In this document: piece after piece, positions 14,497-46,104 of the stretch
Layout: each line of letters opens with the position of its first letter
How positions within the stretch are numbered: the first letter of the stretch is position 1
Assembly (NCBI GenBank): GCA_016432545.1
Contig: CP066694.1
Location: forward strand, 1,307,206 to 1,371,205
Origin: an archaeon
GTDB taxonomy: Archaea; Thermoproteota; Nitrososphaeria; Nitrososphaerales; Gagatemarchaeaceae
Length of the DNA stretch: 64,000 nt
Direction of reading: 5' to 3'
Notes under the pieces: generated by a model
What the model was told of the DNA's origin: nothing
Databases searched by the model: none
What the model saw: only the letters and a program-made list of their open reading frames with translations
Program-made: the position numbers and the translations under genes

Positions 14497-16647
14497 ATGT
14501 CCGCCCGGGCCCCTCTGACTGTTCCGATGGGCAAGGAGGCCGAGCTCTTCCGCCCCCTCCCAAGCGGTAGGATTCAGTGCACCGCCTGCGCCCGCAACTG
14601 CCAGATTGGTGAGGGTCAGGTCGGGTTCTGTGGAGTAAGAGGAGTGGTCGGCGGCAGTCTCTACCTTCTGGTCTACGGGAAGGTCATGGCCGGGCACATC
14701 GACCCGATTGAGAAGAAGCCGGTGGTCCACTATCGGCCCGGGTCAAAGATCTTCTCGATCGCCACAAGCGGATGTTCATGGGCGTGCCATCCGGCTGGGT
14801 CTCAGGTCTTACTTTCGGACGGCACGACGAAGGCGGTTGAAAGCGTGCTTCCTGGCGACATGCTTTGGTCTTACGACATCAATGCGGGGATGCGCATCGA
14901 ACCCAACGTCGTTACCCATGCGCAGATGTTGACTGGAAGACTTTGGGAGGTGACATACGGCGATAACGACCAAAGACCAATCCTTCTGACAGAAGAGCAC
15001 CCCGTCCTCACCAAGGAGGGCTGGAAGGTGGTCAGCCAATTGGGTGCAGGAGACGAGATTCTTCGGGTTTGGCAGGCACAAACAGAGAGCTGGAACAAGA
15101 AACACGCTGCCCGCGGCAGAACAGGGTTTTTCACCTGCCACAAGTGCGGAGAGAAGCTCATAGGATATGACGACTGGAACCGCCACCGGGGGCGGTGTTA
15201 TACTCTGGGCATGAAGCACTCGGATGAATCGCTCCTCCGAAGCCGCGAGCGGATGAAGGCCAACAACCCGATGAAAGACCCTGATGTGGCCCGGCGTGCG
15301 CTCCAGTCCAGCAAGGAGCGTTTCCTCAGAGATGACACGCATGGATGGCACAGAAACGTCGAGCGACTGCGGACCTGGCTTCATCAGCATCCGTCGAAGT
15401 CTCAGCTCAAACTCTATCCATTGCTGGACTCCTTGGAAATGCCGTACGAGAAGGAGTACCGAGTCAAGTTAGAGAAGCGGCTCGAACACTCGAAGTCGTA
15501 CTACATTGCAGACGCAGCTTTCGTGGAAGAAAAGTTAGATGTCGAGGTCGACGGATGGTGGCACTATCACGACCCTGAAGTCCAAGCCAGTGATCGCATT
15601 AGGGACGAGACCCTCCGAGCAAACGGTTGGGACGTGCTCAGAATCTCTGGCTCCTATTTGTTCAACCACTCCGAAGAGTCGAAAGCACTCGTGGTAGCTC
15701 GTCTGTCGAAGCCCCAGATGGCAAACATGAGGCTCTGGGTTGATGTAAAGTCGTCCCGACCCACTGACAGACAAGAGGCAGTTTACAGTTTCGAAACTAT
15801 CACCGACCACAATTATGTTGCGGATGGGATTCTTGTCCATAATTGTTCATACTGTCAAAATAGCGACATCAGCCAGCTGCGCAAGATCGAAGGGGTCGAT
15901 GCGAGGCCCGATGAAATCGTCTCCAACGCGGTCTCCTACGGCTGCGAGGGGATCGCCTATACTTACAACCAGCCGACAATCTTCATGGAGTACGCCCGGG
16001 ACGTCGGTCGCCTGGCCCGCTCCAAGGGCCTCTTCAACATCTTCGTCTCCAACGGCTACGACACCCCTGAAGCCGTCTCGATGATGAACGAATTCCTAGA
16101 TTGCGTCACAGTAGACTTCAAGGGGAGCGGGGAGACCGGCTTCGTCCGAAAGTACATCTCGATCCCAAACGCCGACCCCATCTTCCAGAGCCTCCTCGAG
16201 GTCAAGGAGAAGACCAAGGTGCACGTCGAGATAACCGATCTCATCGTCCCCGAGGTCGGCGAGTCCCTCGAGGCCGCCGAGAAGCTCTGCCGCTGGGTCT
16301 ACGACAAAATGGGCCCGGAGACTCCGGTCCACTTCCTGCGCTTCCATCCCGACTACAAGATGATGGACCTTCCCCTTACCCCTGTCAAGACGCTTGAAAG
16401 GCACTACGACATCGCGAAGAAAGCCGGGCTCAACTACGTCTACATCGGGAACGTCCCTGGCCACCCCGCCGAGAGCACGTACTGCCCGGGCTGCGGGGGC
16501 GTCCTCATCAAGCGGAACGGGTACGAGATACTGGGCTACAACCTCGACTCGCAGAACCGGTGCACCACCTGCGGGACAAAGACGCCGATCGTCGGCCCGC
16601 TCAGCAAGTCTTACGCTGACGACCGCTTCCTGCCCGTGATTAACTGA
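14497..16647 (+). CDS. AmmeMemoRadiSam-type radical SAM enzyme interrupted by an intein
   Basis: N-extein: IQCTACARNCQIGEGQVGFCGVR...DPIEKKPVVHYRPGSKIFSIATSGCSWA. C-extein: CSYCQNSDISQ... Joining the exteins restores GCSWACSYCQN (CX3CX2C). The mature length would be 363 aa. Confidence 0.85.
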   Translation: MSARAPLTVPMGKEAELFRPLPSGRIQCTACARNCQIGEGQVGFCGVRGVVGGSLYLLVYGKVMAGHIDPIEKKPVVHYRPGSKIFSIATSGCSWACHPAGSQVLLSDGTTKAVESVLPGDMLWSYDINAGMRIEPNVVTHAQMLTGRLWEVTYGDNDQRPILLTEEHPVLTKEGWKVVSQLGAGDEILRVWQAQTESWNKKHAARGRTGFFTCHKCGEKLIGYDDWNRHRGRCYTLGMKHSDESLLRSRERMKANNPMKDPDVARRALQSSKERFLRDDTHGWHRNVERLRTWLHQHPSKSQLKLYPLLDSLEMPYEKEYRVKLEKRLEHSKSYYIADAAFVEEKLDVEVDGWWHYHDPEVQASDRIRDETLRANGWDVLRISGSYLFNHSEESKALVVARLSKPQMANMRLWVDVKSSRPTDRQEAVYSFETITDHNYVADGILVHNCSYCQNSDISQLRKIEGVDARPDEIVSNAVSYGCEGIAYTYNQPTIFMEYARDVGRLARSKGLFNIFVSNGYDTPEAVSMMNEFLDCVTVDFKGSGETGFVRKYISIPNADPIFQSLLEVKEKTKVHVEITDLIVPEVGESLEAAEKLCRWVYDKMGPETPVHFLRFHPDYKMMDLPLTPVKTLERHYDIAKKAGLNYVYIGNVPGHPAESTYCPGCGGVLIKRNGYEILGYNLDSQNRCTTCGTKTPIVGPLSKSYADDRFLPVIN
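14785..15843 (+). mobile_element. intein (353 aa) with C2HC finger, NUMOD3-like segment and Vsr/DUF559-like PD-(D/E)XK nuclease domain
   Basis: Starts with Cys (CHPAGSQVLLSDGTTKAVESVLPGD) and ends in ILVHN followed by the +1 Cys. The length is in frame (1059 nt). Internal segment: YYIADAAFVEEKLDVEVDGWWHYHDPEVQASDRIRDETLRANGWDVLRISGSYL. Confidence 0.85.
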
Positions 16648-42787: not shown

Positions 42788-43978
42788 GTGTCGAAGCCTA
42801 TCACTACCTTCGAGGACTTCATCAAGAGGATTCTGAAGGTCGTCTTCTGGGTCGCGCTCTTCCTCCCGCTGATAGGCGTCCCGATCTATTACGCCCTCGA
42901 CGGAATCTTCCATTTCCCCATCGACTTCTTCGCGCTCGCGACCGTGAAGCCCCTGGACTTCCTGGCCTTCCAGCTTAACCTGATCAACACCGAGCCCTTC
43001 AGGACCCTCTTCGCGCTCACGGTCTTCCCTGGCTTCACCTTCGTCGCCGTCTATTCCACGATCTTCATGGGCTGGGTCGAGCGCAAGTTCACGGCAAAGA
43101 TCCAGCTGAGGACCGGACCGATGTACGCAGGAAAGTTCGAGGGCATCGCCCAGAACTTTGCAGACTTCTTCAAGCTCCTCTTCAAGGAGATAATCATCCC
43201 CAACGGGGTCGACACCGCGACCTTCGTCGCGATCCCCTTCGCATTGATGGCGGTCGCGGGAGCCCTCATCGCACTGGTGCCCCTGTCGCCCACCACCTAC
43301 ATCGCGAACCCTACAGTTGGCGCCATTCTCGTCTTCGCCATCCTTGGCTTCTCGCCGCTGATCGTGCTCCTCGCAGGATGGGCGAGCAACAGCAAGTATC
43401 CCTTCCTGGGCGGACTGAGGGCCCTCCACCAGCTCGTCGCCTACGAGATCCCTCTGATACTCTCGCTCCTCGGGGCTGTCATCCTTTCCGGCTCGCTCAA
43501 CCTCGCGCCACTCGTCCCCGGAGGCCCGAGCATAGTGACGGCCCAGGCGAGAATCCCCTACATCCTGCTCCAGCCGCTGGGCGCCGCCGTCTTCTTCGTG
43601 GGGGCGCTCGCGGAGCTCGAACGTATACCCTTCGACCTTCCCGAGGCCGACAGCGAGCTTGTTGCCGGGTGGCAGACCGAGTACACGAGCATGCTCTTCG
43701 GGACCTTCCAGCTTGCGAACTTCTCGAGGATGTACATCATGGCAGGGCTCTTCACCACCTTCTTCCTTGGAGGCTGGCTGGGGCCCGCGCCCGTCCCTCC
43801 CGAGGTCTGGTTCATCCTGAAGACGACCGCCGTCATGATTGCCATGATGCTCCCTCGAAGCGTGATGCCAAGGGTCAGGATCGACCAGCTCCTCCGCGCC
43901 GGCTGGGTCAAACTCCTCGCCGCCTCCTTCCTCAACCTCTTCCTTACAATGGTCATCGTCTCCCTGGGGATTGCATAG
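42788..43978 (+). CDS. nuoH: NADH-quinone oxidoreductase subunit H
   Basis: GWVERKFTAKIQLRTGP and ELERIPFDLPEADSELVAGWQTEY motifs. Confidence 0.92.
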   Translation: MSKPITTFEDFIKRILKVVFWVALFLPLIGVPIYYALDGIFHFPIDFFALATVKPLDFLAFQLNLINTEPFRTLFALTVFPGFTFVAVYSTIFMGWVERKFTAKIQLRTGPMYAGKFEGIAQNFADFFKLLFKEIIIPNGVDTATFVAIPFALMAVAGALIALVPLSPTTYIANPTVGAILVFAILGFSPLIVLLAGWASNSKYPFLGGLRALHQLVAYEIPLILSLLGAVILSGSLNLAPLVPGGPSIVTAQARIPYILLQPLGAAVFFVGALAELERIPFDLPEADSELVAGWQTEYTSMLFGTFQLANFSRMYIMAGLFTTFFLGGWLGPAPVPPEVWFILKTTAVMIAMMLPRSVMPRVRIDQLLRAGWVKLLAASFLNLFLTMVIVSLGIA

Positions 43979-45611
43979 CATGGGGACCCTGGCCTACCTC
44001 AAGGGAATCGCGGTCGCAACCTGGAGCGGCATCAGGCACCTCTTCCGCCCGAGGATGACCCTCCGCTACCCCGAGCAGAAGCTGGACCTCGAGGGGCCCG
44101 GATACCAGTACGACGCAAAGCAGGGCGTAGGCCTTCCCGGGTACAAGGGGCGCCACATCCTATTCCTCGACAAGTGCACGGGCTGCCAGCTCTGCGCGAT
44201 CGCCTGCGACGGGGTCGCAGTCGCCATCGACATGCAGAAAGTCCAGAAGGGCAAGCCACAGAACAAGAAGGAGATCTGGCCGGCCGTGGACTATGGCCGA
44301 TGCGTCTTTTGTGGACTTTGCGTTGATTTTAACACAGAAATTGTAACTAATCCGGGATTGAAGAAAATAAATACAATCCAAGTCGGAGACCTCGTCTTGA
44401 CTCACAGCGGCGACTACAAACCTGTTACCAAGGTCTGGGACATGCTCTTCACTGGGCCTTTGTACAAGATCTGGGTCTTCGGGAGGCCGGAACCTTTGAT
44501 TTGTACTGCAGATCACCCAATCATAGCTGTCTCCAGGGCCTACTCGAACCGAAAGGACAGAAGACTCCTAAGGACGACGGGGCCCTTGAAGTTCTACAAG
44601 CCCGGCGAACTGAAGGTCGGAGACTATCTTGTCAGTCCTATCATCCGGAAGGAGGTGCCCATAGAGAAGTTCGAAAAGGAAGTCCCCATGTACAGGGGAG
44701 GCACTCACAAGCAACATCTGAGCCTTCCCGCGACTCCCGAGCTGTTCAGACTGATTGGATACTATCTCGCCGAAGGCTCTTGCGATGGAGGGCGCAGAGT
44801 CAACTTCGACTTCAACAAGACCGAGCTTGAGACTCACGTGCGTGACTGCAACGAGCTCGTAGAGATGCTCTTCGCCAAGCCCGGGAAATTGAAGAAGAAT
44901 GGAACAAACGGGGTCCGCCTTGTCGTCGACTCTGCTGTCGCTGAAGACTTCTTCTCCCAGTTCGGAAAGGGGGCTCCGAACAAGAAGATAGCCGACTGGG
45001 CCTTCTTTGCGGAACTTCCCAAAGTAGTCGAGCTCCTCAAGGGCTATTGGCGCGGAGATGGAAGTCGGATCAGTCAGCCGAGACAGAAGTACTTCAACTT
45101 CACCACCACTTCCAAAGTCCTCGCGTTCCAAGTCCAGGAACTGCTTGCAAAGCTCGGGGTCATCGGCTTGATCGAGGGCCAGCACCAAAAGGATCGACTT
45201 CCCTCCTATCACGTCAATGTCTTTGGGAGGTGGGCGCAGAAGCTCGCAAACCTCTGGAATGTCGAGCTTGGATTCGACGCTACGAAACACGCTGATAAGT
45301 TCCATTTGGAGGGGAACTATGTCTTCCTCCCTATCCGGAAGATCGAAGTGGAGTCAGTGTCAAAGCACAGAGTCATGGACGTGACTGTTGAGGGGGACCA
45401 CACGTTCGCCCCAAACGGGCTTGCCACCTCGAACTGCGTAGATGCCTGCCCCTTCGACGCCCTCTACATGACCAACGAGTACGAGATGTCCGCCTACGAC
45501 AAGGATGCTCTCAAGTACACTCCTGACATGTTGGCGATTCCGCCCAAGGAGGAAGGCAAGAAGTACAAGGTCAAGCTGGACACAGAGAAGGGGGTCTCCA
45601 CCCACGGCTGA
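43971..45611 (+). CDS. nuoI: NADH-quinone oxidoreductase subunit I (2x[4Fe-4S]) interrupted by an intein
   Basis: First cluster motif: CTGCQLCAIAC. The second motif, CVFCGL|CVDACP, is restored when residues 117-488 are removed. The mature length would be 174 aa. Confidence 0.9.
   Translation: MHSMGTLAYLKGIAVATWSGIRHLFRPRMTLRYPEQKLDLEGPGYQYDAKQGVGLPGYKGRHILFLDKCTGCQLCAIACDGVAVAIDMQKVQKGKPQNKKEIWPAVDYGRCVFCGLCVDFNTEIVTNPGLKKINTIQVGDLVLTHSGDYKPVTKVWDMLFTGPLYKIWVFGRPEPLICTADHPIIAVSRAYSNRKDRRLLRTTGPLKFYKPGELKVGDYLVSPIIRKEVPIEKFEKEVPMYRGGTHKQHLSLPATPELFRLIGYYLAEGSCDGGRRVNFDFNKTELETHVRDCNELVEMLFAKPGKLKKNGTNGVRLVVDSAVAEDFFSQFGKGAPNKKIADWAFFAELPKVVELLKGYWRGDGSRISQPRQKYFNFTTTSKVLAFQVQELLAKLGVIGLIEGQHQKDRLPSYHVNVFGRWAQKLANLWNVELGFDATKHADKFHLEGNYVFLPIRKIEVESVSKHRVMDVTVEGDHTFAPNGLATSNCVDACPFDALYMTNEYEMSAYDKDALKYTPDMLAIPPKEEGKKYKVKLDTEKGVSTHG
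44319..45434 (+). mobile_element. intein (372 aa) with LAGLIDADG homing-endonuclease core
   Basis: Starts CVDFNTEIVTNPGLKKINTIQVGDLVLTH and ends GLATSN followed by the +1 Cys. LAGLIDADG-type blocks: LIGYYLAEGSCDGG and LLKGYWRGDGS. The length is in frame (1116 nt). Confidence 0.88.
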
Positions 45612-45627: not shown

Positions 45628-46104
45628 ATGCTGGCCGTCACGGTCGGCGGGGCGATCATGGCCCTCGAGGCCAAAGAGATCGTCTACGGCGCGATAGGCC
45701 TCGCCGGTTCGCTCTTCGGCGTCGCGACCCTATTCTTCCTCCTCGACGCGCCCTACGTTGCGGTCTTCCAGATCGCCGTCTACATCGGTGCAGTCGCGGT
45801 CCTGATACTCTTCACGGTCATGCTCGTCCGGCAGGAGAAGTGGGCCAAGGAGCTCCCGACCGGCTCACTCGCAAGGGTCGCCGGGATAGCTACCGGACTC
45901 GCCATCGCGGTGGCCATCGCCCTCGCCGCAGCGGCGACCGGCCTGTTCAACTCCACAACGACCAACCCGGCCGACTTCGTCAGGATCGGGGAGCTGATCT
46001 CCACCTCCTACGCCCCGGTCCTCGAGGTGCTCGCCCTCGTGCTCGCAGCCTCCATAGTCGCGGCCCTCACACTCTCAAAAGTCGAACGGGAGGAGAATGC
46101 ATGA
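45628..46104 (+). CDS. nuoJ: NADH-quinone oxidoreductase subunit J
   Basis: FQIAVYIGAVAVLILFTVML family pattern. The first ATG in frame after the nuoI stop was used. Confidence 0.85.
   Translation: MLAVTVGGAIMALEAKEIVYGAIGLAGSLFGVATLFFLLDAPYVAVFQIAVYIGAVAVLILFTVMLVRQEKWAKELPTGSLARVAGIATGLAIAVAIALAAAATGLFNSTTTNPADFVRIGELISTSYAPVLEVLALVLAASIVAALTLSKVEREENA

Follow-up and report, generated by a model that had tools for sequence, protein, structure and literature searches.

A predicted splicing-competent homing intein within the second [4Fe-4S] motif of complex I subunit NuoI in an archaeon of the Gagatemarchaeaceae

The stretch of DNA analyzed here (the window) comprises 64,000 nucleotides (nt) from an archaeon of the Gagatemarchaeaceae (contig CP066694.1 of assembly GCA_016432545.1, positions 1,307,206 to 1,371,205) and contains nuoI, the gene for the NuoI subunit of complex I, located between nuoH and nuoJ. 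Its reading frame is interrupted by an insert that an initial annotation of the sequence had placed at 44319-45434 (residues 117-488) and interpreted as an intein; scripted placement of the insert agrees with these coordinates to the base. The insert, hereafter NuoI-b, is very probably a genuine class-1 intein that harbors an intact double-motif LAGLIDADG homing endonuclease, namely a selfish mobile element that is not part of mature NuoI. We are similarly confident that it is a selfish homing intein whose splicing and endonuclease activities are both predicted to be retained, and that complex I depends on its removal. The gene is organized as follows (aa, amino acids).

43971-45611, + strand, stop included: nuoI precursor, an open reading frame (ORF) of 546 aa from TTG 43971 (543 aa from ATG 43980)
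43971-44318, + strand: N-extein, aa 1-116, with the first motif CTGCQLCAIAC and the first and second Cys of the second motif (CVFCGL)
44319-45434, + strand: predicted class-1 intein NuoI-b with nested endonuclease, 372 aa, precursor aa 117-488
45435-45611, + strand: C-extein, 58 aa and then the stop, beginning with the +1 Cys followed by VDACP

Annotation pipelines choose the ATG at 43980, which leads to the 543-aa precursor and to a mature NuoI of 171 aa. The junctions of the insert read RCVFCGL/CVDFNTE and GLATSN/CVDACPF, where the slash marks the border between extein and intein; as had been proposed, the +1 residue (Cys489) provides the second CxxCxxCxxxCP motif of NuoI with its third Cys, and Cys114 occupies position -3 relative to the intein. 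In 2x[4Fe-4S] ferredoxin folds, the first three Cys of such a motif bind one cluster and the fourth binds the other; thus, both [4Fe-4S] cluster sites of NuoI, known as N6a and N6b in Thermus numbering, are split in the precursor. The genome, which consists of one 1.50-Mb contig, yielded a single nuoI match and no second copy, and complex I would therefore depend on splicing.

In-silico excision of the insert yields a NuoI of 174 aa (from the TTG start), in which the expected ligated junction peptide is CVFCGLCVDACPFDALYMTNEYEMSAYDK; the expectation of the initial annotation that a subunit of normal length with a contiguous ferredoxin motif would remain is thereby borne out. In the precursor, the Pfam Fer4 matches are truncated and end at residue 119. 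In the spliced product, Fer4 spans residues 105-127, which correspond to model positions 2-24 of 24, the motifs CTGCQLCAIAC and CVFCGLCVDACP are present, and both Fer4 and Fer4_7 exceed their cut-offs. Similarly, the NCBIfam NuoI models align to the precursor in two stretches, and for one of them, TIGR01971, two stretches with 86.6 bits are replaced after excision by a single stretch with 102.9 bits, a score below the cut-off of 113.05. The spliced product also matches the solved NuoI, NdhI, and Nqo9 chains in the PDB (E 1e-15 to 1e-17). Moreover, a survey of related genomes, which the initial annotation had suggested, revealed a 171-aa NuoI without an intein in 7 species belonging to the same genus and in each of the 16 other families sampled from the order, and these empty alleles read ...GRCVFCGLCVDACP... 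without any insert. An extremely unlikely alternative is that the 372 residues constitute a lineage-specific domain that is retained in mature NuoI. The open reading frame accords with such a domain, and nothing further does; by contrast, the insert falls between Cys2 and Cys3 of a single cluster motif, orthologs that are about 80-84% identical in the exteins do without it, and it possesses the fold and the residues of an intein.

The latter were located as listed below, with conservation counted among 120 homologous copies.

44319-44390, + strand: AT-rich start of the intein, 72 nt with a GC of 0.35, encoding block A CVDFNTEIVTNPGLKKINTIQVGD
44505-44516, + strand: block B TADH (TxxH; intein T63 and H66), with T and H in 120/120 homologs
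44751-44780, + strand: LAGLIDADG motif 1 LIGYYLAEGS with catalytic E152, E in 118/120 homologs
45033-45065, + strand: LAGLIDADG motif 2 LLKGYWRGDGS with catalytic D247, D in 117/120 homologs
45372-45407, + strand: block F VMDVTVEGDHTF (D354), D in 120/120 homologs
45420-45434, + strand: block G LATSN with terminal Asn372 and penultimate Ser371, N in 120/120 homologs

In addition, the intein nucleophile Cys1 (precursor Cys117) is Cys in 120/120 copies, all C-junctions listed for the homologs have Cys at +1, and the length of 372 aa is shared by 103 of the 120. Pfam LAGLIDADG_3 (PF14528) matches precursor aa 353-420 with 46.4-48.2 bits against a cut-off of 22.5 (E 4.7e-12). When the sequence of the intein alone was compared with the PDB, the matches were weak (gp41-1 mini-intein, 2e-6; PI-PkoII, 5e-4), and a search by fold was therefore needed. 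An AlphaFold2 model of the precursor, built from 44 sequences, has a predicted local distance difference test score (pLDDT) of about 90 over the intein and below 50 in the exteins. When the modelled insert was compared with the PDB by Foldseek, the best match was TliVMA (7qsu, E 3.7e-21), followed by PhoVMA, PI-PkoII, PI-SceI, and PI-PfuI, and after these inteins by the stand-alone LAGLIDADG enzyme I-DmoI (target-normalised template modelling score of about 0.7). These solved inteins (TliVMA/PhoVMA, 7QSU, 7QSS, and 7QST; PI-PkoII, 2CW7; PI-SceI, 1VDE and 1LWS; PI-PfuI, 1DQ3) have in common with NuoI-b a HINT domain with a nested LAGLIDADG endonuclease, and also Cys1, TxxH, the terminal Asn, and the +1 nucleophile, with Foldseek E values ranging from 3.7e-21 to 3e-13. 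However, they are only 12-19% identical to it, they interrupt V-ATPase, DNA polymerase, and ribonucleotide reductase and thus no Fe-S subunit, and NuoI-b differs from them in its penultimate Ser.

By analogy with established intein chemistry, the 546-aa precursor would be translated from the nuoH-I-J-K operon, and its HINT domain would perform an N-S acyl shift at Leu116-Cys117. The N-extein would then be transferred to Cys489 (+1), Asn488 would cyclise, and the exteins would be rejoined into the 174-aa NuoI. Cys489 would thereby become the third Cys of C111-x2-C114-x2-C-x3-CP, and only then could both [4Fe-4S] clusters be bound correctly. The released intein of 42 kDa is predicted to cleave nuoI alleles that lack it, at the stretch encoding CVFCGL/CVDACP, whereupon recombinational repair would copy the intein into the cleaved allele along with flanking DNA a few tens of bases long. 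The computations show the architecture of the insert, the conservation of its residues, its fold, and the empty-site alleles and, as described below, the patchy distribution, purifying selection, and one tract of recent transfer; splicing itself, the endonuclease activity, and the target site are inferred, as is homing, for which the comparative evidence provides indirect support.

A search of 5.8 billion proteins retrieved 428 relatives, and the named ones among them belong to metagenome-assembled genomes (MAGs) of Thaumarchaeota, Nitrososphaerota, or Nitrososphaerales; when each GTDB species was represented by a single genome, 74 loci were obtained, and their MAGs stem from soil, peat, and groundwater. 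Several relatives are labelled by JGI as 'NADH:ubiquinone oxidoreductase subunit I/intein/homing endonuclease', and annotation pipelines name the intein-bearing nuoI 'LAGLIDADG family homing endonuclease' or 'hypothetical protein'. Under such pipeline names, complex I subunits can be overlooked when the metabolism of these uncultured soil archaea is reconstructed. Longer relatives (700-916 aa) contain a second intein, termed a, in the layout DYGR/C...VHN/CVFCGL/C...TSN/CVDACP. Intein a is thus located six residues (18 bp) upstream of intein b, and both lie in one CxxCxxCxxxCP motif, where a occupies the first Cys and b the third; the two inteins are 34% identical (E 7e-62 to 8e-63). Sequences with an occupied a site, all outside the window, include the proteins P0002, P0004, P0016, and P0049 and the loci L045, L047, L049, L050, L054, L064, L065, and L071.

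All four allele states are found within a single genus, in which 25 genomes comprise 7 with no intein, 7 with b only, 4 with a only, 4 with both, and 3 in which no NuoI was found. Among 71 species-level loci, 24 are empty, 21 have b only, 17 have a only, and 9 have both. Intein b measures 368-372 aa throughout this set. Intein a is of full size (366-369 aa) in 17/17 of the loci where it stands alone; in the double alleles it is a mini-intein (172-181 aa) in 7 and of full size in 2, that is, its endonuclease has been lost in 7/9 double alleles and in 0/17 single ones. This arrangement resembles that of the haloarchaeal inteins MCM-a and MCM-d, which affect each other's homing as neighbours and form empty, single, and double alleles in natural populations (Turgeman-Grott et al., 2023; PMC10643990); in both cases, two close sites in one gene exist in these allele states. 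Unlike the MCM sites, those of NuoI are separated by only 6 codons and lie inside one cluster-binding motif, the pair is known from sequence, and intein a is mostly endonuclease-less when b is present and never so when alone. With two sites 18 bp apart and all four allele states sampled in nature, nuoI offers a compact system for studying interference between neighbouring inteins.

The distribution of the inteins suggests frequent movement. On a tree of 66 loci derived from NuoH and NuoJ, the presence of b requires at least 18 changes and that of a at least 12, and the b-only label does not cluster beyond what shuffling the labels produces, as 251 of 500 shuffles on this tree were as low. The loci L038 and L039, from two peat species, have flanks that are about 90% identical over 4.6 kilobases and inteins that are 99.3% identical (8 of 1116 positions differ), and the near-identical tract (L038 1795-2969) ends at most 45 nt upstream and at most 14 nt downstream of the intein. 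Such a tract is what recent homing with short co-conversion should leave behind, and the pair offers a clean example from nature of an intein transferred recently. In comparison with the sister species (L029), the synonymous divergence (dS) of the present genome is 0.78 for NuoH, 0.95 for the exteins, and 3.2 for the intein, and the nonsynonymous divergence (dN) of the intein is 0.26; the inteins of these two genomes are probably not recent vertical orthologs. The dN/dS of intein b is about 0.05 (0.03-0.10) and is alike in the splicing and endonuclease parts, a sign of purifying selection that likewise suits a mobile element. The Leu codon at position -1 is CTC in 6/7 empty alleles and CTT, CTA, or TTA in 6/7 b-only alleles, in what is a small sample; the seventh b-only allele has the Phe codon TTC at this position, and double alleles have CTT or CTC.

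Several points weigh against the view that NuoI-b is a functional homing intein. First, the case for splicing and for DNA cleavage is a computational one. Second, the profile check that had been proposed was passed by the endonuclease and not by the splicing domain: LAGLIDADG_3 scores 46.4 against 22.5, whereas Hint_2 (20.9 bits against a curated cut-off of 28.4) and Intein_splicing (24.3 bits against 35.8) stay under their thresholds, sub-threshold matches that are nevertheless real. Third, the penultimate His that usually assists Asn cyclisation is present in only 4/120 copies, Ser being found in 110/120, and these and the other conservation counts overstate independence, as the 120 homologs are related by descent. 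Fourth, the dN/dS values of intein b are rough, because dS is near saturation. Finally, the L038 and L039 contigs come from one peat study, and some assembly cross-talk between them is conceivable; that the tract ends sharply where the intein does speaks against it.

The unusual penultimate Ser and the sub-threshold Hint scores could also be read as signs of a decayed intein that no longer splices, in which case nuoI would be a pseudogene and complex I would be non-functional or would employ another subunit. This reading seems very unlikely to us. The frame is open, the nucleophiles and the residues of blocks B and F are kept in 120/120 copies, the low dN/dS given above does not suit a decaying sequence, and there is no second nuoI that could replace the gene. 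Because Ser occupies the penultimate position in 110 of the copies, it is, as far as this comparison of homologs reaches, a trait and the norm of the family and not a sign of decay. Other working inteins lack the penultimate His, and Ser therefore does not exclude membership in class 1. In addition, the nuoH-I-J genes were checked and are intact; the neighbours of nuoI are as follows.

42788-43978, + strand: nuoH, 396 aa, an ORF whose counterpart in a Logan contig, the same gene, matches Pfam NADHdh; the 5' operon neighbour, whose stop overlaps or abuts the nuoI start
45628-46104, + strand: nuoJ, 158 aa, a gene call with a Pfam Oxidored_q3 match on identical Logan contigs; the 3' neighbour

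The initial annotation had also pointed to the first part of the insert as strikingly AT-rich and suggestive of foreign origin. The string that it quoted, 61 nt in length, is found at 44319-44379, and a GC profile across nuoI shows 0.64 in the N-extein, the above-mentioned 0.35 in the 72 nt with which the insert begins, and 0.54 in its remainder. The AT-richness is thus real here, but it is weak evidence of foreign origin, since low GC of the intein start is present in only some relatives and the values are 0.60 and 0.62 in L003 and L011. A foreign recombination patch confined to the first 72 nt was considered and rejected, as the divergence of this segment from the sister species L029 is 0.67 compared with 0.66-0.68 elsewhere in the intein. 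GC at third codon positions (GC3) amounts to 0.68 for the intein compared with 0.85 for the exteins, and the intein value is lower than the extein value in 10/11 b-bearing relatives compared; together with the patchy distribution, this lower GC3 of the whole intein is better evidence of foreign origin than the AT-rich start.

Another observation of the initial annotation was that the first three residues of the intein (CVD) copy those of the C-extein (CVD). At the nucleotide level, tgcgttgat and tgcgtagat agree at 8/9 positions; however, the literal copy is not conserved, the relatives beginning with CVD, CID, CVE, CLD, CIE, and others, and CVD as a literal target duplication was accordingly discarded. 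The conserved feature of the intein start (44319-44327 here) is Cys followed by V/I/L and D/E, found in 113/120 copies, and positions 4-9 vary freely. As the alignment of these copies indicates, the exact copy of CVD is chance, and the conserved acidic third residue is real.

Pfam scans followed by frame reading identified seven inteins in this genome. The initial annotation had remarked that two inteins in the window interrupt Fe-S ligand cysteines, and this shared insertion logic stands up when tested in the present genome: five of the seven +1 cysteines, two of them in complex I, are Fe-S ligands by established family assignments.

NuoI intein: junction CVFCGL/C...SN/CVDACP, at an Fe-S ligand Cys
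NuoB intein, 406 aa, within G000:C1:1392186-1394309 (L014 187-2310), + strand: AMGA/CLRGD...LVHN/CAITGG, at an Fe-S ligand Cys
2-oxoacid:ferredoxin oxidoreductase beta intein, within G000:C1:1025284-1027347 (L013 785-2848), - strand: WCPG/CVTGD...ASGN/CGDFGIL, at an Fe-S ligand Cys
Aconitase intein, 523 aa, within G000:C1:154320-158651, + strand: GYGCTT/CIAQGT...VSVHN/CIGNSGP, at the second Cys of the cluster-binding CxxC
Radical-SAM (S-adenosylmethionine) enzyme intein, window 14785-15843: GCSWA/C...HN/CSYCQN, at an Fe-S ligand Cys
MCM intein: GDPG/C...SHN/TAKS, in the P-loop (Walker A)
Hel308/Ski2-like helicase intein: SSPTA/C...CGN/SGKT, in the P-loop (Walker A)

The site of the NuoB intein is, by family assignment, the third ligand Cys of cluster N2, and two subunits of the same complex I would therefore need splicing. 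The closest paralog of NuoI-b in the genome is the intein of 2-oxoacid:ferredoxin oxidoreductase beta (32% identity, E 1e-43), the N-junction of which forms a natural CPGC. The middle domain of the aconitase intein has a weak LAGLIDADG_3 match (21.5 bits), and the MCM and Hel308/Ski2-like helicase genes, which bear the sole non-Fe-S inteins of the seven, are adjacent (G000:C1:728463-731690 and 731707-734940, + strand).

It is tempting to speculate that NuoI-b has been recruited as a conditional redox switch, an idea that we regard as unlikely. Cys114 (-3) and Cys1 of the intein would form a CxxC pair, and either a disulfide between them or binding of a cluster or metal to the CxxCxxC of the precursor would block the first splicing step under oxidising conditions, such that mature NuoI would appear only in a reduced cell that can load Fe-S clusters. 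This reasoning could be extended to the inteins of 2-oxoacid:ferredoxin oxidoreductase beta (CPG/C) and aconitase (CTT/C), whose junctions, like that of NuoI, have an N-extein Cys at -3. In favor of such a switch, there is the concentration of the genome's inteins at Fe-S ligand cysteines, and the acidic residue at intein position 3 echoes the native CVD while positions 4-9 are free. A precedent is the intein of Pyrococcus abyssi MoaA, in which, according to a review, step 1 of splicing is blocked by a disulfide that links Cys1 to a Cys of the N-extein until it is reduced, a 'redox trap' (Callahan et al., 2011, cited in PMC10663303). The MoaA intein is like NuoI-b in having an oxygen-sensitive Fe-S host and an N-extein Cys near Cys1, which in NuoI-b takes the form C-G-L-C1. 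However, redox control has been demonstrated for MoaA, whereas the likeness of NuoI-b is one of sequence, and both the host protein and the intein lineage differ. Furthermore, the intein is not fixed, related species with and without it being about equally common and gains and losses frequent, and the Cys at -3 belongs to the host motif and was not brought by the intein. Every copy retains a full endonuclease under purifying selection, as befits a homing element and not a domesticated mini-intein, and the switch is argued from sequence. We therefore continue to favor a selfish homing intein.

A broader form of the same idea, that inteins of this archaeal lineage have spread preferentially onto Fe-S cysteines and that their C-x-x-C1 junctions allow the respiratory chain and central metabolism to mature only in a reduced, Fe-S-competent cytoplasm, likewise strikes us as rather improbable; if true, it would amount to a post-translational redox checkpoint made of selfish elements. 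An intein-only search of 1.84 billion representative proteins retrieved 6339 relatives, and the nearer ones include inteins at the third Cys of the ferredoxin motif of ABCE1/RLI, in other ferredoxins, at CPG/C of 2-oxoacid:ferredoxin oxidoreductase beta, at CAT/C of thioredoxin-reductase-like proteins, and in SufB and IscU. In the ABCE1/RLI proteins P0176 and P0185, a related intein occupies the third Cys of CxxCxxCxxxCP in the N-terminal Fe-S domain, the same relative position in an unrelated host. The notion of an intein clade specialised on Fe-S sites is weakened by the mixed hosts of the 57 nearest single-intein representative proteins, which by a Pfam tally comprise 6 ferredoxin-type proteins, 4 SufB, 3 thioredoxin-reductase-like proteins, 3 glycosyltransferases, 2 2-oxoacid:ferredoxin oxidoreductase beta, 2 Mu-type portal proteins, methylases, and others; Cys is found at -3 in 11/53 of the nearest single-intein proteins. 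The simplest explanation is that an intein requiring a +1 Cys and a highly conserved target often lands on metal-ligand cysteines.

The kind of element described here is well known, and some public annotations already mark copies as intein-containing. Among the nearer relatives, the SufB inteins (e.g., that of Mycobacterium tuberculosis SufB) have an Fe-S assembly host and are about 30-35% identical to NuoI-b, and the intein-containing archaeal Tes radical-SAM family (NCBIfam NF045703), an Fe-S enzyme, gives a weak model match to the NuoI precursor; both differ from NuoI in host and site and are covered by papers or curated models. Our literature searches found no paper describing a NuoI intein at this host and site, and a large intein survey (PMC4760082) makes no mention of NADH, ferredoxin, or Fe-S. 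The tandem a and b sites and the Fe-S bias of this genome are worth following up. Intein surveys stress ATPases of replication, recombination, and repair as hosts, and here the host is a core respiratory subunit. With one or two inteins inside a single cluster motif of NuoI and another in NuoB, this complex I provides a system for asking whether Fe-S insertion and splicing compete for the same cysteines. The inteins also represent new LAGLIDADG enzymes, the likely target of which can be inferred from the empty alleles. Outside the inteins, the genome contains free-standing LAGLIDADG_3 ORFs at G000:C1:506071-506964 (+ strand), 705941-707029 (- strand), and 658643-659563 (- strand), which may be stand-alone or intron-derived endonucleases or regulators.

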